In this document: one piece after another, positions 1,694-58,121 of the stretch
Numbering within the stretch: position 1 is the stretch's first letter
Layout: the number at the start of each line of letters is the position of its first letter
DNA from: Eledone cirrhosa
Taxonomy: Eukaryota
Direction of reading: 5' to 3'
DNA: 64,000 nt
Assembly (NCBI GenBank): GCA_964016885.1
Contig: OZ024760.1
Coordinates: 27,776,001-27,840,000 of the forward strand
Position numbers and translations under genes: made by a program
Notes under the pieces: model-generated
Told to the model about the DNA's origin: nothing
Seen by the model: the letters and a program-made list of their open reading frames with translations, nothing else
The model's database searches: none

Positions 1694-1870
1694 TAATTAT
1701 CTTATGTTGTTTAATGTATAACTATATATATATATAAAAACAATAAGTTTTATGGTTAACTGAGCTGATTTTATAACAGACATGAAGCACTCTACTCTAC
1801 AGTATTTATCTGGAGTATTATTAATGTTAACAATATTAATAAATGGAAAGTATCTATATAATACCATATT

Positions 1871-1930
1871 TATTTTATTATAAGTATTTCAAGGATACTA
1901 AATTTTAGTGTGCTTTCATCAGATAAAATA
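1871..1930 (-). ncRNA. Type I hammerhead motif (left arm of palindrome 1826-2140)
   Basis: Minus strand: TATTTTAT-CTGATGA-AAG..ACTAAA/TTTAGT..CTT-GAAAT-ACTT-ATA-ATAAAATA; perfect 8-bp stem I. Confidence 0.7.
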
Positions 1931-2024
1931 TAATATTTGGTGTTAAAATATTGACATACCTTAGTGTAAACTTATACTAGTAAGCTTACACTAAGGTATG
2001 TCAATATTTTAACACCAAATATTA

Positions 2025-2098
2025 TATTTTATCTGATGAAAGCATACTAAAATTTTGTGTCCTTGAAATATGTATAATAAATATGTATAATAAAATAA
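2025..2098 (+). ncRNA. Type I hammerhead motif (right arm of palindrome 1826-2140)
   Basis: CTGATGA 2033-2039, GAAAT 2065-2069, ATGT loop, ATA 2074-2076; mirror copy of 1871-1930 with a small tandem duplication. Confidence 0.65.
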
Positions 2099-2196
2099 AT
2101 ATGGTATTATAAATATACTTTCCATTTACTAATATTGTTAATATATATATTTATATACATATATATATATAAATACATATATATATATAAATATAA

Positions 2197-2813: not shown

Positions 2814-2925
2814 GTGAGTTGGTCAAACACAACTATAAGAGGCATTGAAGCCATACACAACCATAAGGAGATTGACCTGCAAGCTGATAAATTTAGCAAT
2901 TTTACGGCAGATTTGTACTTCACAA
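2814..2925 (+). CDS. Host gene exon 2
   Basis: tcttgcAG / GTATGT; phase 0 to 1; VSWSNTTIRGIEAIHNHKEIDLQADKFSNFTADLYFT; the IRGI and LYF motifs recur in exons 7 and 17. Confidence 0.85.
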
Positions 2926-3485
2926 GTATGTCATTTCAAATTTCTGTTTTTAAATTAAAACTCCTCTAACCTTTACTTTTGTTGTCATCCCTTTCCAGGA
3001 ACAAACCCTTCAAAGCATTTTAATCCTATGCTGTAAAGGGTTATGATGAACTGCACCCAGTTTACTCGGTAAAGGAAAGAAAGAATAGGGAAATATAGAA
3101 AAAGAAAAGAAAGAAAGAAGAAAAAAACAGGAAAGATGGCAAGATCTTTGGTGTCGCAGAAGAGAGGGGGGTGGGGGTGATTGGGCTTTGGGTCTAGGGC
3201 AAGGGGCAAGGGGTTGTTTGTTAGGAAAGGTAGGTACCAGGGATTCAAAAGCATGTGACAACCACCCTAGAGCTTCTTTTTCTCCTCCTCCTCCTTCTCC
3301 TCCTCCGTCTTCTTCTTCTTCTTCTTCTTCTTCTTCTTCTTCTTCTTCTTCTTCTTCTTCTCCTCCCCCCCTCCTCCTCCACCACATCTACAAATGCTAG
3401 ATACTCTTTTGTGAGATCCGGAACCTTCAAGCCTCTCACAACACAGCACATGTGCAAACCTTATCTTTCCTGCTTTTCCCCCTCT

Positions 3486-6400
3486 TCTAGATATACTGGC
3501 CCTCCTAGATATACTGGCCCTTCTTCTAGATATACTGGCCCCTCCTCCTAGATATACTGGCCCTCCTCCTAGATATACTGGCCCTCCTCCTAGATATACT
3601 GGCCCTCCTCCTAGATATACTGGCCCTCCTCCTAGATATACTGGCCCTCCTTCTAGATATACTGGCCCTCCTCCTAGATATACTGGCCCTCCTCCTAGAT
3701 ATACTGGCCCTCCTTCTAGATATACTGGCCCTCCTCCTAGATATACTGGCCCTCCTCCTAGATATACTGCCCCTCCTTTTAGGTATACTGTCCCTCCTCC
3801 TAGATATACTGGCCCTCCTCCTAGATATACTGCCCCTCCTCCTAGATATACTGGCCCTCCTCCTAGATATACTGGCCCTCCTCCTAGATATACTGGCCCT
3901 TCTCCTAGATATACTGGCCCTCCTCCTAGATATACTGGCCCTTCTCCTAGATATACTGGCCCTTCTCCTAGATATACTGCCCCTCCTTCTAGATATACTG
4001 GCCCTCCTCCTAGATATACTGGCCCTTCTCCTAGATATACTGGCCCTTCTCCTAGATATACTGCCCCTCCTCCTAGATATACTGGCCCTTCTAGATATAC
4101 TGGCCCTCCTTCTAGATATACTGGCCCTTCTCCTAGATATACTGGCCCTCCATCTAGATATACTGGCCCTTCTCCTAGATATACTGGCCCTTCTCCTAGA
4201 TATACTGGCCCTTCTCCTAGATATACTGTCCCTCCTCCTAGATATACTGCCCCTCCTTCTAGGTATACTGTCCCTCCTCCTAGATATACTGCCCCTCCTC
4301 CTAGATATACTGGCCCTCCTCCTAGATATACTGGCCCTTCTCCTAGATATACTGGCCCTCCTCCTAGATATACTGGCCCTCCTCCTAGATATACTGGCCC
4401 TTCTCCTAGATATACTGGCCCTCCTCCTAGATATACTGGCCCTTCTCCTAGATATACTGTCCCTCCTTCTAGGTATACTGGCCCTCCTCCTAGATATACT
4501 GTCCCTCCTCCTAGATATACTGGCCCTTCTCCTAGATATACTGTCCCTCCTTCTAGATATACTGCCCCTCCTCCTAGATATACTGTCCCTCCTCCTAGAT
4601 ATACTGGCCCTTCTCCTAGATATACTGGCCCTCCTCCTAGATATACTGACCATTCTAGATATACTGACCCTTCTAGATATACTGCCCCTGCTTCTAGGTA
4701 TACTGTCCCTCCTCCTAGATATACTGGCCCTTCTCCTAGATATACTGCCCCTCCTTCTAGGTATACTGTCCCTCCTCCTAGATATACTGGCCCTTCTCCT
4801 AGATATACTGCCCCTCCTTCTAGGTATACTGTCCCTCCTCCTAGATATACTGTCCCTCCTCCTAGATATACTGCCCCTCCTCCTAGATATACTGTCCCTC
4901 CTTCTAGATATACTGTCCCTCCTCCTAGATATACTGCCCCTCCTCCTAGATATACTGCCCCTCCTCCTAGATATACTGGCCCTTCTCCTAGATATACTGT
5001 CCCTCCTCCTAGATATACTGCCCCTCCTTCTAGGTATACTGTCCCTCCTCCTAGATATACTGGCCCTCCTCCTAGATATACTGGCCCTTCTAGATATACT
5101 GTCCCTCCTCCTAGATATACTGTCCCTCCTCCTAGATATACTGGCCCTCCTCCTAGATATACTGGCCCTCCTCCTAGATATACTGCCCCTCCTCCTAGAT
5201 ATACTGGCCCTCCTCCTAGATATACTGGCCCTCCTCCTAGATATACTGGCCCTCCTCCTAGATATACTGGCCCTCCTCCTAGATATACTGGCCCTTCTCC
5301 TAGATATACTGCCCCTCCTTCTAGGTATACTGTCCCTCCTCCTAGATATACTGGCCCTTCTCCTAGATATACTGCCCCTCCTTCTAGGTATACTGTCCCT
5401 CCTCCTAGATATACTGGCCCTTCTAGATATACTGTCCCTCCTCCTAGATATACTGTCCCTCCTCCTAGATATACTGGCCCTCCTCCTAGATATACTGCCC
5501 CTCCTCCTAGATATACTGGCCCTTCTCCTAGATATACTGGCCCTTCTCCTAGATATACTGGCCCTTCTCCTAGATATACTGCCCCTCCTCCTAGATATAC
5601 TGCCCCTCCTTCTAGGTATACTGTCCCTCCTCCTAGATATACTGCCCCTCCTTCTAGGTATACTGCCCCTCCTCCTAGATATACTGTCCCTCCATCTAGG
5701 TATACTGCCCCTCCTTCTAGATATACTGCCCCTCCTTCTAGATATACTGTCCCTCCTCCTAGATATACTGGCCCTTCTCCTAGATATACTGCCCCTCCAT
5801 CTAGATATACTGCCCCTCCTCCTAGATATACTGGCCCTCCTCCTAGATATACTGCCCCTTCTCCTAGATATACTGGCCCTTCTCCTAGATATACTGCCCC
5901 TCCTCCTAGATATACTGCCCCTCCTTCTAGGTATACTGTCCCTCCTCCTAGATATACTGCCCCTCCTTCTAGGTATACTGCCCCTCCTCCTAGATATACT
6001 GTCCCTCCATCTAGGTATACTGCCCCTCCTTCTAGATATACTGCCCCTCCTTCTAGATATACTGTCCCTCCTCCTAGATATACTGGCCCTTCTCCTAGAT
6101 ATACTGGCCCTTCTCCTAGATATACTGCCCCTCCTCCTAGATATACTGGCCCTCCTCCTAGATATACTGGCCCTTCTCCTAGATATACTGGCCCTCCTCC
6201 TAGATATACTGCCCCTTCTCCTAGATATACTGGCCCTTCTCCTAGATATACTGCCCCTCCTCCTAGATATACTGCCCCTTCTCCTAGATATACTGGCCCT
6301 CCTCCTAGATATACTGCCCCTCCTCCTAGATATACTGGCCCTTCTCCTAGATATACTGCCCCTCCATCTAGATATACTGCCCCTCCTCCTAGATATACTG

Positions 6401-9400
6401 GCCCTCCTCCTAGATATACTGCCCCTTCTCCTAGATATACTGGCCCTTCTCCTAGATATACTGCCCCTCCTTCTAGGTATACTGTCCCTCCTCCTAGATA
6501 TACTGGCCCTCCTCCTAGATATACTGCCCCTTCTCCTAGATATACTGGCCCTTCTCCTAGATATACTGCCCCTCCTTCTAGGTATACTGTCCCTCCTCCT
6601 AGATATACTGGCCCTCCTCCTAGATATACTGCCCCTCCTCCTAGATATACTGGCCCTCCTCCTAGATATACTGCCCCTTCTCCTAGATATACTGGCCCTT
6701 CTCCTAGATATACTGGCCCTCCTCCTAGATATACTGGCCCTTCTCCTAGATATACTGGCCCTTCTCCTAGATATACTGGCCCTCCTCCTAGATATACTGG
6801 CCCTTCTCCTAGATATACTGGCCCTTCTCCTAGATATACTGGCCCTCCTCCTAGATATACTGGCCCTTCTCCTAGATATACTGGCCCTTCTCCTAGATAT
6901 ACTGGCCCTTCTCCTAGATATACTGCCCCTCCTCCTAGATATACTGTCCCTCCTCCTAGATATACTGGCCCTTCTCCTAGATATACTGGCCCTCCTCCTA
7001 GATATACTGGCCCTTCTCCTAGATATACTGACCATTCTCCTAGATATACTGTCCCTCCTCCTAGATATACTGGCCCTTCTCCTAGATATACTGGCCCTTC
7101 TCCTAGATATACTGACCATTCTCCTAGATATACTGGCCCTCCTCCTAGATATACTGGCCCTTCTCCTAGATATACTGACCATTCTCCTAGATATACTGGC
7201 CCTCCTTCTAGGTATACTGTCCCTCCTCCTAGATATACTGCCCCTCCTCCTAGATATACTGTCCCTCCTCCTAGATATACTGCCCCTCCTCCTAGATATA
7301 CTGGCCCTTCTCCTAGATATACTGTCCCTCCTCCTAGATATACTGCCCCTCCTCCTAGATATACTGCCCCTCCTCCTAGATATACTGCCCCTTCTCCTAG
7401 ATATACTGCCCCTCCTTCTAGGTATACTGGCCCTTCTCCTAGATATACTGGCCCTCCTTCTAGATATACTGGCCCTTCTCCTAGATATACTGCCCCTTCT
7501 CCTAGATATACTGCCCCTCCTCCTAGATATACTGCCCCTTCTCCTAGATATACTGGCCCTTCTCCTAGATATACTGGCCCTCCTTCTAGATATACTGGCC
7601 CTCCTCCTAGATATACTGGCCCTCCTTCTAGATATACTGTCCCTTCTCCTAGATATACTGGCCCTTCTCCTAGATATACTGGCCCTCCTTCTAGATATAC
7701 TGCCCCTTCTCCTAGATATACTGGCCCTTCTCCTAGATATACTGGCCCTCCTTCTAGATATACTGCCCCTTCTCCTAGATATACTGGCCCTCCTTCTAGA
7801 TATAGTGCCCCTTCTCCTAGATATACTGGCCCTCCTTCTAGATATACTGCCCCTTCTCCTAGATATACTGGCCCTTCTCCTAGATATACTGGCCCTCCTT
7901 CTAGATATACTGCCCCTTCTCCTAGATATACTGGCCCTTCTCCTAGATATACTGGCCCTCCTTCTAGATATACTGCCCCTTCTCCTAGATATACTGGCCC
8001 TCCTTCTAGATATACTGGCCCTTCTCCTAGATATACTGGCCCTCCTTCTAGATATACTGCCCCTTCTCCTAGATATACTGGCCCTCCTCCTAGATATACT
8101 GGCCCTCCTTCTAGATATACTGTCCCTTCTCCTAGATATACTGCCCCTCCTCCTAGATATACTGGCCCTCCTCCTAGATATACTGGCCCTCCTCCTAGAT
8201 ATACTGTCCCTCCTCCTAGATATACTGCCCCTCCTTTTAGGTATACTGCCCCTTCTCCTAGATATACTGGCCCTCCTCCTAGATATACTGCCCCTTCTCC
8301 TAGATATACTGGCCCTCCTCCTAGATATACTGGCCCTCCTTCTAGATATACTGCCCCTTCTCCTAGATATACTGGCCCTCCTCCTAGATATACTGCCCCT
8401 CCATCTAGATATACTGCCCCTTCTCCTAGATATACTGGCCCTCCTCCTAGATATACTGCCCCTCCTCCTAGATATACTGGCCCTCCTCCTAGATATACTG
8501 GCCCTCCTCCTAGATATACTGGCCCTCCTTCTAGATATACTGGCCCTCCTCCTAGATATACTGGCCCTCCTCCTAGATATACTGGCCCTCCTCCTAGATA
8601 TACTGCCCCTCCTTCTAGGTATACTGCCCCTCCTCCTAGATATACTGCCCCTTCTCCTAGATATACTGGCCCTCCTCCTAGATATACTGGCCCTCCTCCT
8701 AGATATACTGGCCCTCCTCCTAGATATACTGGCCCTCCTTCTAGATATACTGCCCCTTCTCCTAGATATACTGGCCCTCCTCCTAGATATACTGCCCCTC
8801 CATCTAGATATACTGGCCCTCCTCCTAGATATACTGGCCCTCCTTCTAGATATACTGACCCTCCATCTAGATATACTGCCCCTTCTCCTAGATATACTGC
8901 CCCTCCTTCTAGGTATACTGCCCCTCCTTCTAGGTATACTGTCCCTCCTCCTAGATATACTGCCCCTCCTTCTAGGTATACTGCCCCTCCTCCTAGATAT
9001 ACTGCCCCTCCTTCTAGGTATACTGTCCCTCCTCCTAGATATACTGCCCCTCCTCCTAGATATACTGCCCCTCCTCCTAGATATACTGCCCCTCCTCCTA
9101 GATATACTGCCCCTCCTTCTAGGTATACTGTCCCTCCTCCTAGATATACTGCCCCTCCTTCTAGGTATACTGTCCCTCCTCCTAGATATACTGCCCCTCC
9201 TTCTAGGTATACTGCCCCTCCTCCTAGATATACTGCCCCTCCTCCTAGATATACTGCCCCTCCTCCTAGATATACTGCCCCTTCTCCTAGATATACTGCC
9301 CCTCCTTCTAGGTATACTGCCCCTCCTTCTAGGTATACTGTCCCTCCTCCTAGATATACTGCCCCTCCTTCTAGGTATACTGTCCCTCCTCCTAGATATA

Positions 9401-10991
9401 CTGCCCCTCCTTCTAGGTATACTGCCCCTCCTCCTAGATATACTGCCCCTCCTTCTAGGTATACTGTCCCTCCTCCTAGATATACTGCCCCTCCTTCTAG
9501 GTATACTGCCCCTCCTCCTAGATATACTGTCCCTCCATCTAGGTATACTGCCCCTCCTTCTAGATATACTGCCCCTCCTTCTAGATATACTGTCCCTCCT
9601 CCTAGATATACTGTCCCTCCATCTAGGTATACTGGCCCTCCTTCTAGATATACTGTCCCTCCTCCTAGATATACTGTCCCTCCATCTAGGTATACTGTCC
9701 CTCCTAGATATACTGCCCCTCCTCCTAGATATACTGTCCCTCCTCCTAGATATACTGGCCCTCCTCCTAGATATACTGGCCCTCCTTCTAGGTATACTAG
9801 CCCTTCTCCTAGATATACTGGCCCTCCTCCTAGATATACTGGCCCTCCTCCTAGATATACTGGCCCTCCTCCTAGATATACTGGCCCTCCTCCTAGATAT
9901 ACTGGCCCTTCTCCTAGATATACTGCCCCTTCTCCTAGATATACTGCCCCTCCTTCTAGATATACTGGCCCTCCTCCTAGATATACTGGCCCTCCTCCTA
10001 GATATACTGCCCCTCCTTCTAGATATACTGCCCCTCCTTCTAGATATACTGGCCCTCCTCCTAGATATACTGGCCCTCCTCCTAGATATACTGGCCCTCC
10101 TCCTAGATATACTGTCCCTCCTTCTAGATATACTGTCCCTCCTTCTAGATATACTGACCCTTCTAGATATATTGGCCCTTCTAGATATACTGCCCCTCCT
10201 TCTAGATATACTGGCCCTCCTTCTAGATATACTGCCCCTCCTTCTAGATATACTGTCCCTCCTTCTAGATATACTGTCCCTCCTTCTAGATATACTGGCC
10301 CTCCTCCTAGATATACTGGCCCTCCTTCTAGATATACTGGCCCTCCTTCTAGATATACTGTCCCTCCATCTAGATATACTGTCCCTCCATCTAGATATAC
10401 TGACCCTTCTAGATATATTGGCCCTTCTAGATATACTGCCCCTCCTTCTAGATATACTAGCCCTCCTCCTAGATTTACTGTCCCTCCTTCTAGATATACT
10501 GTCCCTCCATCTAGATATACTGGCCCTCCTCCTAGATATACTGGCCCTCCTTCTAGATATACTGACCCTTCTAGATATACTAGCCCTCCTTCTAGATATA
10601 CTGTCCCTCCTTCTAGGTATACTGTCCCTCCTTCTAGATATACTGGCCCTCCTTCTAGATATACTAGCCCTCTTTCTAGATATACTGTCCCTCCTTCTAG
10701 ATATACTGCCCCTCCTCCTAGATATACTGGCCCTCCTCCTAGATATACTGTCCCTCCATCTAGATATACTGTCCCTCCTCCTAGATATACTGGCCCTCCT
10801 TCTAGATATACTGTCCCTCCTTCTAGATATACTGGCCATCCTTCTAAATATACTGGCCCTCCTCCTAGATATACTGGCCCTCCTTCTAGATATACTAGCC
10901 CTCCTCCTAGATATACTGGCCCTCCTTCTAGATATACTGACCCTTCTAGATATACTAGCCCTCCTCCTAGATATACTGGCCCTCCTTCTAG
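3486..10991. repeat. 7.5-kb minisatellite, 21-bp unit TAGATATACTGGCCCTCCTCC
   Basis: About 355 units with a few 18-bp variants; source of the 2437-aa and 1066-aa ORFs. Confidence 0.98.
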
Positions 10992-11642
10992 CTATCTGTT
11001 ATTAGTTTCTCTTTCCTCCATTTTCTCTAGGCTCTTTCTTCCTTGCCTTTCCACCAGCATGTCACCCCCTGTCTTGGTAGGACCTTGTTCCAGTGGCTGA
11101 TCTGGCTTTTGGCGTCTGGCTTTTGGCGTCCTGTAGAAATTCCCCAATTTTTCTATCTATCTATCTATCTATCTATATGTCTGTCTTCTTTCTCTCTATC
11201 TAACCCCCTCTCTCTATATATATGTCTCCATCCCCTCCCACACATAGGAGAATATATAAAAAGGAGATCAATATTTATATTTTCATATATTCTCCTATGT
11301 GTAGAGAAAAAATACGTTGTTTTATGTTCTGGTATGTCAAATTGATACCATAGAACAACATCTGTACCATAAACACCCTATATATTTCCAGAGGTACTTA
11401 GTACCTATGGCAATATTGATCTCCTTTTTATATATTCCCCTATGTGTAGAGAAAAAATCCGTTGTTCTACCTAGCCACTAGTTTTAGTGGCGTGATAGAC
11501 AACACATTTATGTTTACTTTCGCTTATACTAAGGGCTAGTTCATGTGTAGGTCAAGTTTACGGCCTCATTCAATCCTGCACTAGCTGGCAGAATGCAATA
11601 TATTTTGCCGTTCGTGGGACTTTCGTTCTATGTAGGGGGAAA

Positions 11643-11724
11643 TGCTTTCTGAAGAACTGAACATTTCCATTGGAAGTCCATAGGACTTCCAATCTTTTGT
11701 GAGGTGAAACCATCGGTAAAAGCA
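11643..11724 (+). ncRNA. Type I hammerhead ribozyme motif
   Basis: Perfect stem I TGCTTT/AAAGCA; CTGAAGA 11649-11655; stem II includes 11-bp ATTGGAAGTCC/GGACTTCCAAT; GAAAC-CATCG-GTA, predicted cut after 11718. Confidence 0.8.
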
Positions 11725-11796
11725 AATGGAATAGGTAAATATTTAAATTATATTTTTTAATTTATTTTAAGGAATTGTTTGAATCTTACTTATTTC

Positions 11797-11882: not shown

Positions 11883-11937
11883 ACTGCTATATATATTTCG
11901 GTGACAGCCATCTTTGGCTGTGACCTCTTCAGGCAGT
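11883..11937 (-). ncRNA. Type I minimal hammerhead ribozyme
   Basis: Minus strand: ACTGC-CTGAAGA-GGTCACAGCCA-AAGA-TGGCTGTCACC-GAAAT-ATAT-ATA-GCAGT; perfect stem I, near-perfect stem II, palindromic stem III loop. Confidence 0.88.
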
Positions 11938-12804: not shown

Positions 12805-12848
<44 letters not shown>

Positions 12849-12885
12849 ATATATTAATAAATGGAAAATATATTTATAAAACATA

Positions 12886-12955
12886 ATTATTTTATATTAT
12901 ATATATTTCAAGGGCAACCAAGGCAAATTATGGTGTGGTTTCATCAGATAAAATA
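12886..12955 (-). ncRNA. Type I hammerhead motif (same family as 1871-1930 and 56617-56682)
   Basis: Minus strand: TATTTTAT-CTGATGA-...-CTT-GAAAT-ATAT-ATA; flanks homologous to 1826-1960. Confidence 0.6.
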
Positions 12956-13159
12956 CAAAATATGTTTTATAAATGTTGACATACCTGTAGAACAACCTTG
13001 GCGTTTGGAGGATCGCTGGAGGTTCAAAATATAGTTTCCATTTATTAATATAATGAATATTTACTCCACTAAACTGTTGAGTGCTTTATATCAGTTATAA
13101 AACTCTTAAGTTTGTTGAATCCCAACAAATTAAATATAACCTTTGCATATATATATATA

Positions 13160-16134: not shown

Positions 16135-16436
16135 AGAAAACACAGGTAGGCATTAAAAAAAGGATTTTATCCAGGTATTTACAACCGTTTCATTGGTTAC
16201 AATAAGCAATTTTCTGCTTCCCTAACTATATATATATATATATATTTAGCTTTGTTCGTTCACCACTGGATAGAACTGGTCATTCCGTATGGTCAACCTC
16301 GATGTAATATTATGGAGAGTACTCGACATAATGCAACTCACCCATCTTCGTTTGTGTAGTTGGTGGTGTGAGTACGGAGTTAATTATTATAAAATAACAG
16401 GAGGCTGGACTGGTGTAAATCCTTAAAAGGTTTATT

Positions 16437-16494
16437 ATACTATGATCATTTCAATGACTCGGTTCAGTATGAATCCGGTGACATCATCAGGTAT
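16437..16494 (-). ncRNA. Type I minimal hammerhead ribozyme
   Basis: Minus strand: ATAC-CTGATGA-(stem II with CGG/CCG and TTCA/TGAA)-GAAAT-GATC-ATA-GTAT; stem I ATAC/GTAT; palindromic GATC loop. Confidence 0.78.
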
Positions 16495-16529
16495 TCGAAA
16501 TATTAAAAAAAAAAAATATATATATATAT

Positions 16530-16959: not shown

Positions 16960-16995
16960 TCATAACGTTTCGGACGCTTGTCCTTCATCAGAAGA
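16960..16995 (-). ncRNA. Hammerhead core, weak stem I
   Basis: Minus strand: CTGATGA-A-GGAC-AAGC-GTCC-GAAACGTT; core and stem II present, stem I poor. Confidence 0.5.
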
Positions 16996-26071: not shown

Positions 26072-26563
26072 GTGAGTGCCTATGTTTTGTTTCTAAGATT
26101 TAAATTTTTTAAATTCTTTTACAGGTAAGGTGAAGTATTTGTTTATTGTTTTTCCATTTCTTGTATGTTTTTTTTTCTTCTCTTTTGTTTCTTACTTTTG
26201 TCTGTTCTTTCTTTTTCTTTGTTGCTGTTTCTTTTGTCCTAATATTTCGGGACTTAAAATCCTCTTCTTCAGAGTTTAAGGAACTCTCAGAGAAAAAGGT
26301 TCCAGTTTCCTCTCTTTGGAATTAAATTTAAGTCTAAATTTAATTAAGTATCGATAGCGGGTCGGACGCCATGCTTTGCAGCATAGAGTTACGCCCCTTT
26401 TCGGTCTGAGTTCAAATCCCGCCGAGGTTAACTTTGCCTTTCATCCTTACGGGGTCGATAAAATAAAGTACCAGTAATGCACTGGGATAATTGCTGGCCC
26501 CTTGTGCCAAAAGTAGAAACAATTATTATTATTATTATTATCATTATTATTCATTCGTTTCAG

Positions 26564-28515: not shown

Positions 28516-31500
28516 CAGGCATGTCAAACTGAGGGTCCTCTGAGGGCCACATGGGTCACATACGTGTTGTCTGAGGGCGACATGGGTCACATGTGTGTTG
28601 TCTGAGGGCCATATGGGTCACATGTGTGTTGTCTGAGGGCCATATGGGTCACGTGTGTTGTCTGAGGGCGACATGGGTCACATATGTGTTGTCTGAGGGC
28701 AACATGGGTCACATGTGTGTTGTCTGAGGGCCACATGGGTCACATGTGTGTTGTCTGAGGGCCATATGGGTCACATGTGTGTTGTCTGAGGGAAACATGG
28801 GTCACATATGTGTTGTCTGACGGCAACATGGGTCACATGTGTGTTGTCTGAGGGCCATATGGGTCACGTGTGTTGTCTGAGGGCGACATGGGTCACATAT
28901 GTGTTGTCTGAGGGCCATATGGGCCACATATGTGTTGTCTGAGGGCCACATGGGTCACATATGTGTTGTCTGAGAGCCATATGGGTCACATATGTGTTGT
29001 CTGAGGGCGACATGGGTCACATGTGTGTTGTCTGAGGGCCATATGGGTCACATGTGTGTTGTCTGAGGGCCACATGGGTCACATATGTGTTGTCTGAGGG
29101 CCACATGGGTCACATGTGTGTTGTCTGAGGGCAATATGGGTCACATGTGTGTTGTCTGAGGGCCACATGGGTCACAGGTGTGTTTGTAAAGGGCCACAGG
29201 TGTGTTTGTAAAGGGCCGCAGGTGTGTTTGTAAAGGGCCATAGCTGTGTTTGTAAAGGGCCACAGGTGTGTTTGTAAAGGGTCATAGGTGTGTTTGTAAA
29301 GGGCCACAGGTGTGTTTGTAAAGGGCCGCAGGTGTGTTTGTAAAGGGCCACAGGTCTGTTTGTAAAGGGCCATAGGTGTGTTTGTAAAGGGCCATAGGTG
29401 TGTTTGTAAAGGGCCACAGGTGTGTTTGTAAAGGGCCATAGGTGTGTTTGTAAAGGGCCGCAGGTGTGTTTGTAAAGGGCCGCAGGTGTGTTTGTAAAGG
29501 GCCACAGGTGTGTTTGTAAAGTGAGGCAGGTGTGTTTGTAAAGGGCTGCAGGTGTGTTTGTAAAGGGCCGCAGGTGTGTTTGTAAAGGGCCACAGGTGTG
29601 TTTGTAAAGTGAGGCAGGTGTGTTTGTAAAGGGCTGCAGGTGTGTTTGTAAAGGGCCGCAGGTGTGTTTGTAAAGGGCCACAGGTGTGTTTGTAAAGTGA
29701 GGCAGGTGTGTTTGTAAAGGGCTGCAGGTGTGTTTGTAAAGGGCCGCAGGTGTGTTTGTAAAGGGCCACAGGTCTGTTTGTAAAGTGAGGCAGGTGTGTT
29801 TGTAAAGGGCTGCAGGTGTGTTTGTAAAGGGCCATAGCTGTGTTTGTAAAGGGCCACAGGTGTGTTTGTAAAGGGCCATAGGTGTGTTTGTAAAGGGCCA
29901 CAGGTGTGTTTGTAAAGGGCCGCAGGTGTGTTTGTAAAGGGCCACAGGTCTGTTTGTAAAGGGCCATAGGTGTGTTTGTAAAGGGCCATAGGTGTGTTTG
30001 TAAAGGGCCACAGGTGTGTTTGTAAAGGGCCATAGGTGTGTTTGTAAAGGGCCGCAGGTGTGTTTGTAAAGGGCCGCAGGTGTGTTTGTAAAGGGCCACA
30101 GGTGTGTTTGTAAAGTGAGGCAGGTGTGTTTGTAAAGGGCTGCAGGTGTGTTTGTAAAGGGCCGCAGGTGTGTTTGTAAAGGGCCACAGGTGTGTTTGTA
30201 AAGTGAGGCAGGTGTGTTTGTAAAGGGCTGCAGGTGTGTTTGTAAAGGGCCGCAGGTGTGTTTGTAAAGGGCCACAGGTGTGTTTGTAAAGTGAGGCAGG
30301 TGTGTTTGTAAAGGGCTGCAGGTGTGTTTGTAAAGGGCTGCAGGTGTGTTTGTAAAGGGCCGCAGGTGTGTTTGTAAAGGGCCACAGGTCTGTTTGTAAA
30401 GTGAGGCAGGTGTGTTTGTAAAGGGCTGCAGGTGTGTTTGTAAAGGGCCGCAGGTGTGTTTGTAAAGGGCCACAGGTGTGTTTGTAAAGTGAGGCAGGTG
30501 TGTTTGTAAAGGGCTACAGGTGTGTTTGTAAAGGGCCACAGGTGTGTTTGTAAAGTGAGGCAGGTGTGTTTGTAAAGGGCTGCAGGTGTGTTTGTAAAGG
30601 GCCGCAGGTGTGTTTGTAAAGGGCCACAGGTGTGTTTGTAAAGTGAGGCAGGTGTGTTTGTAAAGGGCTGCAGGTGTGTTTGTAAAGGGCTGCAGGTGTG
30701 TTTGTAAAGGGCTGCAGGTGTGTTTGTAAAGGGCCACAGGTGTGTTTGTAAAGTGAGGCAGGTGTGTTTGTAAAGGGCTGCAGGTGTGTTTGTAAAGGGC
30801 CGCAGGTGTGTTTGTAAAGGGCCACAGGTGTGTTTGTAAAGTGAGGCAGGTGTGTTTGTAAAGGGCTGCAGGTGTGTTTGTAAAGGGCCACAGGTGTGTT
30901 TGTAAAGTGAGGCAGTTGTGTTTGTAAAGGGCTGCAGGTGTGTTTGTAAAGGGCCGCAGGTGTGTTTGTAAAGGGCCACAGGTCTGTTTGTAACTGGCCA
31001 TAGGTGTGTTTGTAAAGGGCCATAGGTGTGTTTGTAAAGGGCCACAGGTGTGTTTGTAAAGGGCCACAGGTGTGTTTGTAAAGGGCCGCAGGTGTGTTTG
31101 TAAAGGGCCACAGGTCTGTTTGTAAAGGGCCATAGGTGTGTTTGTAAAGGGCCATAGGTGTGTTTGTAAAGGGCCACAGGTGTGTTTGTAAAGGGCCATA
31201 GGTGTGTTTGTAAAGGGCCGCAGGTGTGTTTGTAAAGGGCCGCAGGTGTGTTTGTAAAGGGCCACAGGTGTGTTTGTAAAGTGAGGCAGGTGTGTTTGTA
31301 AAGGGCTGCAGGTGTGTTTGTAAAGGGCCGCAGGTGTGTTTGTAAAGGGCCACAGGTGTGTTTGTAAAGTGAGGCAGGTGTGTTTGTAAAGGGCTGCAGG
31401 TGTGTTTGTAAAGGGCCGCAGGTGTGTTTGTAAAGGGCCACAGGTGTGTTTGTAAAGTGAGGCAGGTGTGTTTGTAAAGGGCTGCAGGTGTGTTTGTAAA

Positions 31501-32426
31501 GGGCCGCAGGTGTGTTTGTAAAGGGCCACAGGTCTGTTTGTAAAGTGAGGCAGGTGTGTTTGTAAAGGGCTGCAGGTGTGTTTGTAAAGGGCCGCAGGTG
31601 TGTTTGTAAAGGGCCACAGGTGTGTTTGTAAAGTGAGGCAGGTGTGTTTGTAAAGGGCTACAGGTGTGTTTGTAAAGGGCCGCAGGTGTGTTTGTAAAGG
31701 GCCACAGGTGTGTTTGTAAAGTGAGGCAGGTGTGTTTGTAAAGGGCTGCAGGTGTGTTTGTAAAGGGCCGCAGGTGTGTTTGTAAAGGGCCACAGGTGTG
31801 TTTGTAAAGTGAGGCAGGTGTGTTTGTAAAGGGCTGCAGGTGTGTTTGTAAAGGGCTGCAGGTGTGTTTGTAAAGGGCTGCAGGTGTGTTTGTAAAGGGC
31901 CACAGGTGTGTTTGTAAAGTGAGGCAGGTGTGTTTGTAAAGGGCTGCAGGTGTGTTTGTAAAGGGCCGCAGGTGTGTTTGTAAAGGGCCACAGGTGTGTT
32001 TGTAAAGTGAGGCAGGTGTGTTTGTAAAGGGCTGCAGGTGTGTTTGTAAAGGGCCACAGGTGTGTTTGTAAAGTGAGGCAGTTGTGTTTGTAAAGGGCTG
32101 CAGGTGTGTTTGTAAAGGGCCGCAGGTGTGTTTGTAAAGGGCCACAGGTCTGTTTGTAACTGGCCATAGGTGTGTTTGTAAAGGGCCATAGGTGTGTTTG
32201 TAAAGGGCCACAGGTGTGTTTGTAAAGGGCCACAGGTGTGTTTGTAAAGGGCCATAGGTGTGTTTGTAAAGGGCCGCAGGTGTGTTTGTAAAGGGCCATA
32301 GGTGTGTTTGTAAAGGGCCGCAGGTGTGTTTGTAAAAGGCCGCAGGTGTGTTTGTAAAGGGCCGCAGGTGTGTTTGTAAAGTGAGGCAGGTGTGTTTGTA
32401 AAGGGCCACATATTTGACAATGCCTA
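28516..32426. mobile_element. hAT-type MITE filled by 31-bp and 22-bp minisatellites
   Basis: TIRs CAGGCATGTCAAA / TTTGACAATGCCTA; 8-bp flanks CTATATAT and CTATAGAC (6 of 8 match). Confidence 0.75.
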
Positions 32427-38530: not shown

Positions 38531-41500
38531 TCACCTTTCATAAAACTTGCTGGGGTAGAGCACCTCTCTCTCCATTCTGATCCTTCTTTTAAAATGGTAT
38601 TTGAAAAAGGGGACCAGTTGTTGGCCGGAGAGAAAGGTGTCTGACCTCAGCCCTTTCAGCCTCGTCCACCATACAACTTCTTTAGCCATAGCTATCACAC
38701 AGAGAAAAACCGCCTCTCCTTCGTTTTTGAAAGGGGGAGGTGGTTTGATCGTGACAATGGACTCGGTGGTCAACTGGATTGGTGCCACCCTTGACAGTAG
38801 TCGTTCCACATAGCCCCACAGGTCAGCAATGCCTGGGCAGTGTACGAATGCGTGCGCAACGGTTTCGTCGTCATGCACACATCTCGGACAGATCTTATTC
38901 AAAGGATCCCTACCCAGGCTCCCATGCCTGTGGAGCTTGTCTCGAACGGGTAGAGCCCCTCGGTAGCACTGCCAAGCCAGGGACTTTTGGAAGTTGTCCA
39001 TCGGTCCAGGGCCAAACGTCCTACCGAACAGACTGGCCAGTTCATCTTCCTCCATGCCTAGAGCTTCTCCGAGAGCATCGTCGCACCTGCTGCGTACCAA
39101 CCCTCTATAGAATGTCGAGGTGGAGTCTCCACTGATTGCCGGGTCCGCTTTCCAGAGGGCCGTGAGCACCTGGGCACATTCAGTGTGCCAGTCGCCCACT
39201 TTTCTCGGTCTTTGCTTGACCCAGGATTGCAGCTCGGTGAGCGAGACGAGTCTGGGAAAGGCTCGCCTCACAAACGGGGCCCACACCGGTTGACCGGTGA
39301 GGAATACCTGGAGGTGCCGTAGCCTTAATGCGTGTTTACGTATCTGTAGCCACGGCATCCCCAGCCCTCCTTTCGAAAGGTGTTGACAGCAGATGGATCT
39401 CCTCACCAAAGGGGTCCGCTTGTTCCAAAGAAATTGGAACAGCGCGCACTCCATTTTGGCGAGTCTTTTCACTGGGCAAGGCACGACGGATGCTATATAA
39501 GTATTCGCCACCTCCGCTCGACCTTTCAGGGATAGTTTGTACTGGGCCCACTTCTGGGTGAGTGCAAACACCCTGGCCGTTACCTCGTTCCAGTTTTTCT
39601 CCACCTGGAGGTCTGGTCCGAACCAGACCCCAAGCAGCTTCACCGGGCCCTCCGTCCAGCATCCGACAACGTCGTTGGAGGCCATCGGTTTGCCTCTCCA
39701 TGTTCCGAGTTGCAAACCGACGGACTTGTCCCGGTTCAGCTTGGCCCTGTAAACCTTTCATATTCCTCCAGTAAGGTGCCGATCTCACCGATTTGCGAGG
39801 TTTTCGACACCATTACTGTCACGTCATCGGCGTAGGCCGACGCCGCTTTCTGCAATCCCGGTTCCAAAGGGATGCCCTGCAACCGCTCCAACTTCCGCAG
39901 TAGTGGCTCAAGAGCCAGCACATACAGAAGGGAGGAGAGAGGGCATCCCTGTCGGATGGATCGCATGATTTTGAACGGCTCCGAGAGGTGGCCGTTCACC
40001 TTGACCCTTGAGCAGACGTTGCTGCTGTGCATCGCAGCAATCCAACCCCTGAAAACGGGTCCGAAGCCTGCCGCCGCGAGCACCGCATCCAAGTAATGAT
40101 GGTCAACCCTATCGAAAGCTTTAGATTGATACAAGTTGATCAGGGCCCCACCAAAGCCGGGTTCATTCCCTACCCTCTCTATGATGTATCACATAAGGTG
40201 GAGATTGTCGTGAATGGACCTGAACGGGATTGCGCATGTCTGCGCTTCTCCCACCAGGTTTCCGACGACAAGTGCCAACCTCTTCGCTAACACCTTGGCC
40301 AAAATCTTTAACTCTGTATTTAGCAGAGTTATGGGCCTGAAGTTACTTATGTCATCCCCCTTGTTCTCATCCTTCCTCACCAGCGTAACTACGCCCTTGG
40401 TCACAGAACTGGGAATTCTCCCGTTCTGCTGCCAGTTGCAGTAGACCGCTTCGAGGATATCGGAGAACAAGTCCGGCATCGCTACATATAGCTCGTATGG
40501 TAGACCATCGAGACCCGGGGATTTGCGTTTGCCGCATTGGCTCAGCGCCGCCCCTATCTCAGCAGCTGAAATCGGCCTTTCGCAGGACTTCGCCTCCGCG
40601 TCCGAGAAGCGCGGCAGACCGTCGAGGTATGGATTGAAATCCATAGTCTCACCCGGTGCGCCGCCCCTCTCGAACAGTCGTGCAAAGTGCCGCTGAAAGG
40701 CCGCACACATCTGCCCAGGTTCAAGGATCACACGACCATCCTGGTCCTTCAAAGACCGAATCGTGAACTTGTTCCCACTTTTTGCCTCTGTCACTCGGGC
40801 CCAGCTAACAGCTTTGGCTCCCTCATTACCCAGAGCACGTATTTTACTCCTGACAACGCAGCCCTCGTTCTTCGCATCAAAGAACTGGTCTAAGGCCATT
40901 CTTGATGCCAGCACGCTTGCTACATTTCCACTCCTAATCGCCTCTTCTACTCTATCTACTAATTCCCTTTCCGTCTTGTTTTTATCCCTTGCTAATTCCT
41001 GACTAAAACCTATCGATTCTATTCTAATTGCTCTCTTAAGAGAGCTCCACCACCTGTTGTTGACAATTGCCCCTGTCAAACACTGCTTAACTAACGTGCT
41101 AATACGTTTACTGTAAGCTTTGCTTGTCGGTAAGGACAAGTTCAGCTTCCAGTAACCGGGTCCCTGTCTATGGGTTCTATCAAGGTTGACTATGCAGGTC
41201 ACTAACTTGTGATCCGAATAGTCAACCATGAACATTTTTGGACAGCTAAATGTGTCCCTATCCTTATCTCTAACTAGGACCCTATCTAGGTATGACCTAG
41301 ATGTTCCGCTGAGATTGGTCCACGTCCATAGTGGTACAGTCGGAAAATCTAGTCGATATCTATCGGCCAGGTCAAATCAGCCGATTAACCTTTTGAGGCT
41401 TTTACACCCCCCTCTATTGGCACATGCCCCTACATAGTCCCAACGTGCATCCAGGATACCATTCCAGTCCCCCACTAAAAGAAAGGAGCGGGACGTTCCC

Positions 41501-44899: not shown

Positions 44900-47093
44900 C
44901 AGGCATGGGCAACCGCTTTCGAGAAGCAGGCCCCATGAGATATGGCTCATCATCAGGCGGGCCACATGAGATATGGTTCATCATCATGCGGGCCACATGA
45001 GATATGGTTCATCATCATGCGGGCCGCATGTGAGATATGGTTCATCATCAGGTGGGCCGCATGAGATATGGCTCATCATCAGGCAGCCCACATGAGATAT
45101 GGCTCATCATCAGGCGGGCCACATGAGATATGGCTCATCATCAGGCAGCCCACATGAGATATGGCTCATCATCAGGCGGGCCACATGAGATATGGCTCAT
45201 CATCAGGCAGCGCACATGAGATATGGCTCATCATCAGGCGGGCCACATGAGATATGGCTCATCATCAGGAGGGCCACATGAGATATGGCTCATCATCAGG
45301 AGGGCCACATGAGATATGGCTCATCATCAGGAGGGCCACATGAGATATGGTGCATCATCAGGAGGGCCGCATGAGATATGGTGCATCATCAGGAGGGCCG
45401 CATGAGATATGGTGCATCATCAGGAGGGCCACATGAGATATGGTTCATCATCAGGAGGGCCACATGAGATATGGCTCATCATCAGGCGGGCCACATGAGA
45501 TATGGCTCATCATCAGGAGGGCCACATGAGATATGGCTCATCATCAGGAGGGCCACATGAGATATGGCTCATCATCAGGAGGGCCACATGAGATATGGTG
45601 CATCATCAGGAGGGCCGCATGAGATATGGTGCATCATCAGGAGGGCCGCATGAGATATGGTGCATCATCAGGAGGGCCACATGAGATATGGTTCATCATC
45701 AGGAGGGCCACATGAGATATGGCTCATCATCAGGTGGGCCGCATGAGATATGGTGCATCATCAGGAGGGCCACATGAGATATGGCTCATCATCAGGAGGG
45801 CCGCATGAGATATGGCTCATCATCAGGAGGGCCCCAAGAGATATGGCTCATCATCAGGAGGGCCGCATGAGATATGGTGCATCATCAGGAGGGCCGCATG
45901 AGATATGGTGCATCATCAGGAGGGCCACATGAGATATGGTTCATCATCAGGAGGGCCACATGAGATATGGCTCATCATCAGGTGGGCCGCATGAGATATG
46001 GTGCATCATCAGGAGGGCCACATGAGATATGGCTCATCATCAGGAGGGCCACATGAGATATGGCTCATCATCAGGAGGGCCACATGAGATATGGTGCATC
46101 ATCAGGAGGGCCGCATGAGATATGGTGCATCATCAGGAGGGCCGCATGAGATATGGTGCATCATCAGGAGGGCCACATGAGATATGGTTCATCATCAGGA
46201 GGGCCACATGAGATATGGCTCATCATCAGGTGGGCCGCATGAGATATGGTGCATCATCAGGAGGGCCACATGAGATATGGCTCATCATCAGGAGGGCCGC
46301 ATGAGATATGGCTCATCATCAGGAGGGCCCCAAGAGATATGGCTCATCATCAGGAGGGCCACAATGAGATATGGCTCATCATCAGGAGGGCCGCATGAGA
46401 TATGGCTCATCATCAGGAGGGCCGCATGAGATATGGCTCATCATCAGGAGGGCCGCATGAGATATGGCTCATCATCAGGAGGGCCGCATGAGATATGGTG
46501 CATCATCAGGAGGGCCACATGAGATATGGCTCATCATCAGGCGGGCCGCAAACGCTAATTTACATTCGTGCCCACATAAAAAAAAACAGGGCCGGTAACT
46601 CAGGTTGTTTTGATTTGTTTCTTCAGAATTCGTACATGTTGTTTTCCTTGATCGTAAAAATGATAGAAAGATAAATTATGACTGAAAAGTTGGGGGTAAA
46701 AAGAATCAGAAAGATTTCACTTGGGTGACTTAGGGGAGCCATTGAGAAAGATTTCACTTGGGTGACTTGGGTGAGCCATTGAGAAAGATTTCACTTGGGT
46801 GACTTGGGGGAGCCATTGAGAAAGATTTCACTTGGGTGTCTTGGGGGAGCCATTGAGAAAGATTTCACTTGGGTGACTTTGGCGAGCCATTGAGAAAGAT
46901 TTCACTTGGGTGACTTAGGTGAGCCATTGAGAAAGATTTCACTTGGGTGACTTGGGGGAGCCATTGAGAAAGATTTCACTTGGGTGACTTGGGGGAGCAA
47001 TTGAGAAAGATTTCACTTGGGTGACTTGGGTGAGCCATTGAGAAAGCTTCGCGGGTTGTATGTGGCCAGTGGGCCGCAGGTTGCCTATAATTG
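44900..47093. mobile_element. hAT-type MITE filled by ~31-bp and 37-bp minisatellites
   Basis: TIRs CAGGCATGGGCAAC / GTTGCCTATAATTG; 8-bp flanks ATTTAGAG and ATTTAGTC (6 of 8 match). Confidence 0.75.
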
Positions 47094-53990: not shown

Positions 53991-54082
53991 AAGGTATTTC
54001 CGTGGAAAAGGTAAAGGAAAGAAGAGTGCTCTATGTATAGTACAGAGCTATTTCATTATGTCATAAACAACACAATATAGTT

Positions 54083-54155
54083 ATTCCATTACTCAAGGTT
54101 TCACGAAGTCAGACAATTCTAACAGAAGCATGTGATATCGTTCATCAGAAGGAAT
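54083..54155 (-). ncRNA. Type I hammerhead motif (left arm of palindrome 54049-54286)
   Basis: Minus strand: ATTCCTT-CTGATGA-ACGA...TCGT-GAAAC-CTTGA-GTA-ATGGAAT. Confidence 0.7.
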
Positions 54156-54180
54156 CTTTATTTGGAAATCCAAATAAAGG

Positions 54181-54251
54181 TTCCTTCTGATGAACGAATT
54201 CAGGCGCTTCTGTTAGAATTGTCTGACTTCGTGAAACCTTGAGTAATGGAA
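54181..54251 (+). ncRNA. Type I hammerhead motif (right arm of palindrome 54049-54286)
   Basis: CTGATGA 54187-54193; extended stem II ACGAA/TTCGT, TCAG/CTGA, TTCT/AGAA; GAAAC 54233-54237; GTA 54243-54245; stem I TTCCTT/ATGGAA with one mismatch. Confidence 0.78.
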
Positions 54252-54595
54252 TAATTATATTGTGTTGTTTATGACATAATAAAATATATATATTTATAGT
54301 GAAGGTGCATGGCTTAGTGGTTAGAGCATTGGGCTTGCAATCGAAAGGTTGTGAGTTCAATTCTCAGACTGGGTGATGTGTTGTTTCCTTGAGCAAGACA
54401 CTTTATTTCACATTGCTCCAGTTTACTCAGCTGTAGAAATGAGTACCAACCTGCCCGCCCGCTTATCTTATGGAAAAAAAGCACATAGCACTCACTGTAA
54501 ATAAGGTTGGGAAGGGCATCCAGCTGTAGAAATCAAGCCAGAATCAGTTCTCGTCCCACCCTTACAAGCAGGGAAAAGCGGATGTGAAATGATGA

Positions 54596-54638
<43 letters not shown>

Positions 54639-55030
54639 GTAATTAGGAGTATTCCAAAGCTTGGTAGAACAAGTTGTGAGGAAAGTTCTCAACATACGTT
54701 AAGGTGACTCGACAGGTTGGTAGGGATTCTGTAGTGGAAACACGAACAAACGAGGAGTGTAATCAAAGAAGAGAAATAGGACGAAGGTAAACAGTTACAA
54801 AAGAATTTAATCTACGTATTAACAATTGTTAAGACGTGGATTAAATCCTTTTGTAACTGCTTACCTTCGTCCTATTTCTCTTTTTTATATATATATATAT
54901 ATAGTTGTTGTATTGTTGCAATAAATGCGTCCGTAGGCGGTATGCCGTTTGAGCACTCAATGCTCGCGCAGAGCAGAGTATATTATTAGAGATAATGAGG
55001 AATCAGTGATGCATTAAAACACAATTTATT

Positions 55031-55129
55031 AACATATTACATATGTTTCTCCGATGATCAGCTCAAGGCAGGATCTATTTTATTACAGATCGAACCTGAC
55101 TCTGTGTTCGCAAGGTCCTCAGATATGTT
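55031..55129 (-). ncRNA. Type I hammerhead motif (left arm of inverted repeat 54988-55505)
   Basis: Minus strand: AACATAT-CTGAGGA-long stem II region-GAAAC-ATAT-GTA-ATATGTT; perfect 7-bp stem I. Confidence 0.7.
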
Positions 55130-55369
55130 TAGTATTTTCAAAGCATTTCATCTGATTGAAATCATTCGATCCATTCCATCGTCTACAATTGACATCATCC
55201 TGTTGATACGGCCTTTTCAGGCAGTGGACGTATTTGACCAGTCAAAGGACGGCGGTGACGCTTGAGATTCTAAACCAATGAGAAGGCCGTATCAACTGGA
55301 TGATGTCAATTGTAGACGATGGAACGGATCGAATAATTTCATTCAGATGAAATGCTTTGAAAGTGCAAT

Positions 55370-55461
55370 ACATATCTGAGGACCTTGCAAATGCAAAGTC
55401 AGGTTCAGTCTGTAATAGGTCCTGCCGTGAGCTACTCATCGGAGAAACATATGTAATATGT
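55370..55461 (+). ncRNA. Type I hammerhead motif (right arm of inverted repeat 54988-55505)
   Basis: ACATAT-CTGAGGA(55376-55382) ... GAAAC(55444-55448)-ATAT-GTA-ATATGT; palindromic ACATATGT stem III. Confidence 0.7.
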
Positions 55462-55520
55462 TAATAAATTGTGTTTTGATGTATCACTGATTCCTCATTA
55501 TCTCTCTCTCTCTCTCTCTC

Positions 55521-57237
<1,717 letters not shown>

Positions 57238-58121
57238 TGTAAGCAACAAGCCAACAATGATCCAGACATATAAGTGACTATACCATCAAGATGAACAAAT
57301 GTTTAACGTAAGATTTGGGATAAGTAATACAATCTTAAAATCAAGAAAAAATACTTAACCGTCAATTTCGGGAAAACTACAAATGCACTATATAGTCTTA
57401 AAAGACTATTTCACGAAAATTTTCAGTGGGGTTAGTTACGTTTGGCATCGATTTTCAGTAGTGTTCAATACATTAACTAAATCTCACTGCTCAAATGCCA
57501 GAGGGGAATTATAAGCAGGCAAGTGAACAGCGTGTAGAATTGAAATAACAAAACACACGTGGACACACGCTAGTGATGCCGGGATGAGACGAAAATCTGT
57601 TTACAAGAAACACCAGTCAAATATATATCATCATCATTTCATTTCATTTTACGTCCGCTTTTTCCCTGCTCGCAAGGGTGGGACGGGAACTGATTCTGGC
57701 TTGATTTCTACAGCTGGATGCCCTTCCTAACACCAACCTCATTTACAGTGAGTGCTGGGTGCTTTTTTGCTGTGGCACCTCCATGACCACTTTGCAGTGG
57801 TCCCTATCATCTCATTTCTACAGCTGAGTAAACTGGAGCAATGTGAAATAAAGTGTCTTGCTCAAGGAAACAACACATCACCCGGTCTGAGAATTGAACT
57901 CACAACCTTTCGATTGCAAAGCCAATGCTCTAACCACTAAGCCATGTGTTTCCATTATATATATATATTTATTAAAATAACAGATTCTTTGCTTAAACTT
58001 TAATCTGTTATTTTAATAAATATTTGCTCTACGGTTTTTATATATATTTATATATATTATCCTTATCGAGCCCTCTTCGGAATTTAGTCTTCACATATAT
58101 TATTATTACTATATATACATC

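Follow-up and report, generated by a model that had tools for sequence, protein, structure and literature searches.

Candidate type I hammerhead ribozymes from three sister Hydra-clade families of Penelope-like retrotransposons in Eledone cirrhosa

Hammerhead ribozymes have been described from Penelope-like retrotransposons of animals. The minimal hammerheads of metazoan Penelope elements (Cervera and de la Peña 2014, PMC4209133) are of type I, with a long stem II and a short palindromic stem III. A model in which such ribozymes act as dimers is already published (PMC4209133; review, PMC6765202), and the review cites Lünse et al. 2017 for dimer cleavage. The Hydra clade of Penelope-like elements is marked by a C-terminal endonuclease (EN), the motifs RWK and DKT, a CxCx5C linker, CxxC and CxH, the lack of CCHH, and (TA)n targets (PMC8557442). 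It includes a hammerhead-bearing element from Octopus bimaculoides, Hydra-1_Obim (Craig et al. 2021, PMC8557442).

We analyzed a window of 64,000 nucleotides from the Eledone cirrhosa assembly (contig OZ024760.1, positions 27,776,001 to 27,840,000). The four hammerhead motifs with common flanks reported in an initial annotation were found at 1930-1871 (-), 2025-2097 (+), 12955-12888 (-), and 56617-56682 (+), and are called A to D below. Judged by sequence, they are very probably type I hammerheads from the 3' ends (pseudo-LTRs) of Hydra-clade Penelope-like retrotransposon families. They had been taken for one family seen four times; they represent rather three sister families (A/B, C, and D) and three insertions, with proteins ~36-72% identical to the D protein. 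The best joint explanation, to which we give a probability of about 0.88, is that three sister Hydra-clade families left 5'-truncated remnants in (TA)n tracts and that their source elements likely self-cleave as dimers paired through loop 3. The kind of element is known and the families themselves appear to be new; a search of the open literature found no published description of these particular families.

According to PMC8557442, Hydra-clade elements combine a single ORF for reverse transcriptase (RT) and C-terminal GIY-YIG with (TA)n targets, a 3'-end hammerhead, a tail at a single end, partial tandems, and an inverted copy on the 5' side, all of which recur here, and a by-eye comparison with the supplement of that paper showed motif-by-motif agreement with the Hydra-1_Obim protein. 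The units are longer, at 3.9-4.1 kb (3856 and 4095 bp, owing to a 1.4-kb 3' UTR) against under 3 kb in the clade, where this size is a tendency rather than a criterion, and the tail measures ~90 nt against 30-40 nt. The Hydra-1_oBim hammerhead has the core CUGAAGA and the loop acca-a-tggt, whereas in those described here the palindrome is even and 8 nt long, stem I is AU-rich with 8 bp, and stem II contains a mismatch. The likeness to the hammerheads of PMC4209133 extends to many consensus families per genome, compensatory changes, proposed dimer action, and occurrence as single truncated motifs or opposite-strand pairs 100-700 bp apart. Stem I has 8 bp here against 4-5 there, and the first stem II pair, a conserved G10.1-C11.1 there, is variable and mostly A-U here; alternatively, this pair may correspond to the extra unpaired position of that study.

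Four motifs in three insertions

The features of the three insertions are as follows.

1737..2140, no strand assigned: one inverted insertion of the A/B family (arms A and B) between two (TA)n tracts
1871..1930, minus strand: hammerhead A, with stem I 1930-1923/1878-1871, core CUGAUGA 1922-1916, stem II 1915-1891, GAA 1890-1888, and predicted cut after A1879
1887-1880, minus strand: loop 3 of hammerhead A, ATACTTAT, where the family mode is ATACGTAT; palindrome broken
1737..1828, minus strand: 3' extension ("tail") of arm A, positional homolog of the ribozyme-ORF leader in full-length elements
2025..2097, plus strand: hammerhead B, with core 2033-2039, stem II 2040-2064, and loop 3 ATATGTAT at 2068-2075
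2077-2089, plus strand: damage in hammerhead B, a 13-nt duplication displacing the stem I 3' strand; short 3' end at ~2140
12847..13147, minus strand: C-family insertion, an inverted tail fragment (~13147-13023) followed by a 5'-truncated forward copy
12888..12955, minus strand: hammerhead C, with core 12947-12941, G>C in the stem II base, and a 2-nt insertion at 12897-12896, past the cut site
56534..56723, plus strand: 5'-truncated copy of the young D family, within a 1.7-kb (TA)n tract (55525-57217)
56617..56682, plus strand: hammerhead D, the modal sequence of its family, with stem I 56617-56624/56675-56682, core CUGAGGA 56625-56631, and stem II 56632-56662
56666-56673, plus strand: loop 3 of hammerhead D, ATATATAT; predicted cut after A56674

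Each motif runs in the order stem I (8 nt), CUGANGA, stem II, GAA, an 8-nt A...U segment, A, and the 3' strand of stem I. The type I core (C3 U4 G5 A6 N7 G8 A9 / G12 A13 A14 A15.1 / U16.1 H17) is present in all four window copies and retained in the family majority sequences of BLAST-picked copies. Position 7 varies as initially described, being U in A, B, and C and G in D. The type I topology, in which stems I and II flank the core and the ends meet in stem I, was found in A, D, and the family modes and is disturbed in B and C. Copies A, B, and C are damaged and D is intact; hammerhead C is likely inactive, given its broken stem II pair and 2-nt insertion.

A strict hammerhead descriptor matched seven places in the window, while 100 shuffles averaged 0.11 matches (maximum 1); copy C was missed because of its 2-nt insertion. 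A simple core pattern occurred 18 times where 2.7 were expected, four of the 18 coming from an 11-bp tandem repeat. We also searched the window, and the window alone, with a covariance model of 13 genomic representatives, among which the window copies were not included, although D is identical to one modelled sequence; A-D scored 76-105 bits, and the next match 44. An Rfam scan of the window at E ≤ 1 returned 137 matches, nearly all microsatellite artefacts and none of them to a hammerhead family.

The remnants are 190-400 bp long, 5'-truncated, and embedded in (TA)n tracts. Motifs A and B occupy opposite arms of a single inverted repeat (101 nt, 94% complementarity, center 1977/1978), so that the four motifs represent three insertions and are not independent samples. 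The inversion point lies at a 4-nt CTTA/TAAG microhomology near 1971-1984, a junction type that recurs in other loci. Searches of the 3.0-Gb assembly gave 2064 (B), 1058 (C), and 1063 (D) DNA-search candidates, which are not copy numbers; 40 were scored for each. For D, 43 of the 49 matches listed were identical over all 158 nt, and this near-complete identity indicates a very young family. Relatives of A/B and C are ~80-94% identical to the window copies.

A second inverted insertion (L004, G000:C21:27873615-27876756), ~97 kb away, has the same inversion point as the window pair. Arm A (1826-1974) is closer to both L004 arms than to B, sharing with them four variants, including the broken palindrome, that its partner B lacks. 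A and B disagree at 5 of 12 family-polymorphic sites, while 14 other pairs do so at 9 of 70. Possible causes of the sharing are gene conversion, the copying of a source whose ribozyme was already damaged, or the use of two templates. Segmental duplication of the window pair and L004 was rejected, as matches of 70-84% lay in repeats alone and a common unique flank was not seen. A two-template origin was likewise rejected for the D inverted pairs: of 306 polymorphic cells, 35 distinguish the two arms where 100.7 would be expected at random, and most of the 35 apparently stem from end position. The arms of C inverted pairs differ at 34 of 113 cells against 38.9 at random, a figure inflated by end sites and very short overlaps.

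The window holds further repeats of this and other kinds. Hammerheads of two unrelated families face each other across a (TA)n tract at 11649-11726 (+) and 11884-11937 (-), with loops ACCATCGGT and ATATATAT; the family of the latter recurs in L136, L142, and L161. An inverted pair of another hammerhead family with a long stem II lies at 54993-55500 (cores 55122 (-) and 55376 (+), loop ACATATGT) and, bounded by TA-type repeats, is probably another Penelope-like inverted insertion. The inverted pair at 54030-54290 has hammerhead cores at 54148 (-) and 54187 (+) and failed the strict descriptor. Further CUGANGA...GAAA cores, some with weak model scores, lie at 916-943, 1628-1677, 16449-16490, 16968-16991, and 26245-26272 and are possibly decayed hammerheads; weak covariance-model matches include 16411-16524 (E = 0.009) and 1593-1715 (E = 0.36). 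A 7.5-kb minisatellite (3480-10995, 21-bp unit, ~360 copies) produces spurious 2500-aa open frames on both strands, and other arrays occupy 29175-32407, 44929-46547, and 61195-63278. A broken non-LTR retrotransposon lies at 38531-41376 (-), with matches to RVT_1 (below cut-off) and zf-RVT. Rfam tRNA-like matches at 54308-54371 (+, 33 bits) and 57887-57944 (-, 27.5 bits) are probably the heads of tRNA-derived SINEs.

Covariation, selection, and the loop 3 palindrome

We aligned 13 representatives of the clan with these flanks. The descriptor used to choose them requires the core together with five pairs in stem I and two in stem II, so the invariance of the core among them is circular. RNAalifold recovered stems I and II from these sequences unprompted, and 97% of 270 cells pair in the hammerhead structure. 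Covariation across aligned genomic copies was borne out by pair counts against shuffles: both sides have changed in 10 of 21 pairs, amounting to 38 cells against 14.1 ± 3.4 in shuffled data, a value reached in 0 of 500 shuffles, though the relatedness of the 13 sequences means that these counts are not probabilities. By helix, both-sided change was seen in 0/8 pairs of stem I, 5/6 of the stem II base, 3/3 of the stem II distal helix, which is only 86% paired, and 2/4 of loop 3. Four stem I pairs vary, each on one side only.

Compensatory change, as initially proposed, therefore holds for stem II (8 of 9 pairs) and fails for stem I; it is also seen in loop 3 (2 of 4), whose self-complementarity, the strongest signal, was absent from the initial annotation, as was the identity of the source element. 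The change there from TATTTTAT/ATAAAATA to TATTTTGT/ATGAAATA does keep the pairing, but by two separate one-sided A>G changes that give G·U wobbles, with none of eight pairs compensatory. Stem II had been said to differ completely; instead, it retains a base of 3 bp, then a mismatch and a further 3 bp, with true compensatory swaps. Nor can ACTAAA/TTTAGT pair in full, since this would require a 1-nt loop; it forms five pairs at most, one of which B breaks.

We next consider variation within families, in 181 BLAST-picked copies (47 A/B, 53 C, and 81 D), leaving out CpG columns and ragged ends and setting aside nine likely segmental-duplicate loci, which removed five copies. The copies are best matches and non-independent, so that all P values here are indicative. 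Private changes had a density of 5.1 per 1000 cells for the core and 7.6 for the flanks (P = 0.27); for core, stem I, and loop 3 together the counts were 35 in 6046 cells against 95 in 12544 for the flanks (P = 0.19). Alleles found in four or more copies showed a different distribution, occurring in 0 of 100 columns of core, stem I, and loop 3 and in 13 of 213 flank columns (P = 0.011), and the 2 × 2 test of private against shared gave P = 0.038. The 12 catalytic core positions had no shared allele in 36 columns, which alone is not significant (P = 0.22), while stem II had 13 shared alleles in 85 columns and the free position 7 had one. An excluded CpG change in loop 3, present in 6 of 46 A/B copies, yields a G·U palindrome. 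Within families, then, shared alleles avoid the core, and private changes are not significantly rarer there than in the flanks. As shared variants avoid core, stem I, and loop 3 and private changes do not, this contrast joins the covariation in supporting the earlier suggestion of selection on RNA structure in the source elements.

The segment from A15.1 to U16.1 is self-complementary, reading ATACGTAT in the A/B mode, ATATATAT in C and D, and ATGCGCAT in a further family; the descriptor does not require a palindrome in loop 3. Across 31 clusters with 283 descriptor matches, drawn from 193 loci and the window with overlapping loci counted more than once, the inner loop-3 pairs are Watson-Crick in 83 of 89 cases, against 37 ± 5 when shuffled. 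Among 19 distinct loops the figures are 49 of 53 against 20.6 ± 3.9, and the innermost pair, which is unable to close a hairpin, is Watson-Crick in 16 of 19 against 7.5 ± 2.1. The predicted probability of a stable intramolecular stem III was at most 0.002 in all seven sequences folded. Since the inner pairs are impossible within one molecule and an intramolecular stem III is this improbable, the pattern points to pairing between ribozymes. The self-complementary loop would take over the role of stem III, as in dimeric Penelope hammerheads, and the ribozymes are predicted to cut only as pairs; dimer cleavage is likely in the source elements. The motifs are very rich in A and U, and folding of monomers does not favor the hammerhead shape even in D, with stem I probabilities of 0.46 (A), 0.04 (B), 0.00 (C), and 0.01 (D). 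The self-duplex energy of ATATATAT is only -3.2 kcal/mol, and that of the arm A loop 3 is +2.0, against -6.5 kcal/mol for the A/B family mode.

Insertion ends and the role of the ribozyme

Copies end at two fixed points, ~50 and ~140 nt beyond the predicted cut site. TA-like letters follow at both points, and a few of them are included in the aligned ends. The two ends account for 40 and 28 of 72 D copies and for 32 and 15 of 51 C copies. Among loci chosen by upstream sequence only, 27 of 30 (A/B) and 19 of 21 (C) continue beyond the cut site; one C copy goes no further than +2, and there another repeat apparently begins. For D, 16 of 17 loci that reach the ribozyme continue beyond it, and 12 of 29 did not reach it. 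In 35 of 41 inverted pairs as counted, one end is long and the other short; D contributes 23 of 27, C 6 of 8, and A/B 6 of 6, where one D case is an A/B locus caught by the pattern and one C place was counted twice. Because the insertions run past the cut site, the template must span the ribozyme, uncut or religated.

The long and short ends match the one-end tail of Penelope-like elements described by Craig et al. (PMC8557442). The two end points match the pair of internal sites, 3' of the hammerhead, at which RT starts and by which the tail is defined in PAc (Poseidon) of Anolis carolinensis, an element that also has AT-rich targets and a template spanning the ribozyme (Frangieh et al. 2024, PMC11167929). 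PAc belongs to another clade and its ribozyme overlaps the start codon, whereas the cut site here lies ~190 nt upstream; the ~90-nt distance between the two ends also differs from PAc. Based on these observations, we propose that the GIY-YIG enzyme would nick (TA)n DNA and that RT would start at one of two sites inside an RNA still spanning the ribozyme, uncut or religated. Early termination with fold-back could then yield the short inverted remnants. Two ribozymes of a partial-tandem transcript would pair via loop 3 and excise a unit-length RNA, which would explain why the structure is kept in replicating elements and decays in inserted copies.

The structure could instead be kept for another reason, such as protein binding, a dimerization or packaging signal, or hitch-hiking on the element, which we regard as unlikely while still giving it real weight. 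It would fit insertions that nearly always span the cut site, as well as the PAc results, where ribozyme mutants showed no reduction of in vitro insertion and reads ending at the cut site were absent (PMC11167929). Craig et al. call the function of EN+ hammerheads unclear and describe Naiads without canonical hammerheads (PMC8557442). It would also fit the palindrome-breaking loop 3 common to arm A and both L004 arms, three arms at two loci, so that damage to its ribozyme may not have stopped a source from being copied. Nevertheless, shared variants spare the 12 catalytic positions and hit the free position 7, as expected if catalysis matters, and a circular RNA that was cut and then ligated would span the cut site too.

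Source elements and their clade

D copies spaced a few kb apart enclose an ORF. L128 has a ribozyme at 2662, an intact ORF at 2874-5114, and a second ribozyme at 6518, giving a unit of 3856 bp; L129 shares this layout and has, in addition, an inverted ribozyme at 2492, immediately 5' of the first, in an arrangement like A/B. The D ORF (L127-L129) encodes 739 aa from the first Met and reads as an RT with YRDD and a GIY-YIG-type C-terminus, and a search with its C-terminal part gave at least 150 scored matches at 96-100% identity. For C, L192 has a ribozyme at 1768, a broken ORF, and a ribozyme at 5863 (unit 4095 bp), the ORF matching D at 70% identity across most of the RT region and at 56-63% in EN. 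A full-length A/B element was not recovered among the examined loci; in seven of them (L006, L132, L144, L151, L155, L156, and L159), pieces of EN-coding sequence, 36-69% identical, precede the ribozyme or its upstream segment in the sense orientation. In full-length copies, the motif lies ~1.4 kb past the stop codon and again just 5' of the start codon, with the predicted cut ~190 nt before the ATG. Partial tandems (pseudo-LTRs) with hammerhead, an inverted 5'-truncated copy, and a one-end tail were found in L095, L128, L129, and L192. The flanking repeats resemble octopus SINEs.

The Hydra-clade call rests on motifs and by-eye comparison with published proteins rather than on a tree. The element ORF has RWR (a variant of RWK), SDKT, CNCRDRSKC, CDLC, and CKH, no CCHH, and a C-terminal EN, and all three window insertions and most loci examined lie in (TA)n. 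The Naiad/Chlamys clade, with N-terminal GIY-YIG and without a canonical hammerhead, was rejected, since EN is C-terminal here and a hammerhead is present. Full-length homologs of the 739-aa protein are 31-36% identical; the nearest named homolog, at 38%, is from Argonauta hians. Pfam at E ≤ 0.1 matched none of four ORF pieces.

Two side observations concern related ORFs. In L095, L091, and many ORF-search matches, a poly-C run that separates RT from EN is often the site of a frame shift in the D ORF, with open frames of 220-226 aa starting there; this could be real slippage or long-read assembly error. A fourth Hydra-like family (L093:6000-7001 and L096:1-1791, G000:C2:314697000-314699800), with RT 49-55% identical, has an inverted hammerhead with loop ATGCGCAT just 5' of its ORF.

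The ORF linkage largely refutes the idea of a free-standing non-autonomous element (an animal retrozyme, or a hammerhead SINE or MITE) that would move as a short RNA circle with a borrowed Penelope RT, a reading we hold to be very improbable. Most copies are indeed just 150-400 bp long and very numerous (1058-2064 candidates per query), the inverted pairs look MITE-like, and animal non-LTR retrozymes, short and non-autonomous, are known to carry type I hammerheads in many copies (PMC7229834). However, 5' ends are ragged, longer copies extend into 3' UTR and ORF in all three families, and no short non-coding unit independent of the ORF was found: the motif is the end of a coding element of ~4 kb. 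Head-to-tail arrays of 170-400 nt were not noticed in the examined loci, where direct repeats are spaced 3.86 and 4.10 kb apart. That the pairing is chance in AT-rich repeats with unselected RNA structure is scarcely credible despite the GC content of 18-22%, weak predicted folding, and absent Rfam hammerhead match, being refuted by the descriptor excess (0 of 11 chance matches were palindromic), the both-sided G-C to A-U swaps in stem II and loop 3, and the fixed position of the motif relative to the Penelope ORF.

The finding of Hydra-clade sources with hammerheads is in itself ordinary: earlier papers report pseudo-LTR Penelope hammerheads, the palindromic loop, and its covariation, and an octopus has already yielded a member of the Hydra clade. 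Because Rfam does not detect these motifs, nor Pfam the ORF, families of this sort are prone to misannotation. The shared-versus-private contrast provides sequence evidence of purifying selection on core, stem I, and loop 3 in replicating elements, although ribozyme mutants left in vitro insertion unaffected in PAc (PMC11167929). A very young Hydra family with intact ORFs offers a ready substrate for tests of ribozyme function. At least 19 different self-complementary loops are co-resident among the Penelope families of this genome, and, as a speculation that we think will probably prove wrong, the loop-3 palindrome could be a family-specific pairing code by which each family's ribozyme dimerizes and cuts only with its own kind. 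If so, the still-amplifying D family, with its intact ORFs and thousands of near-identical remnants, would offer a population test of the need for dimer cleavage in vivo.
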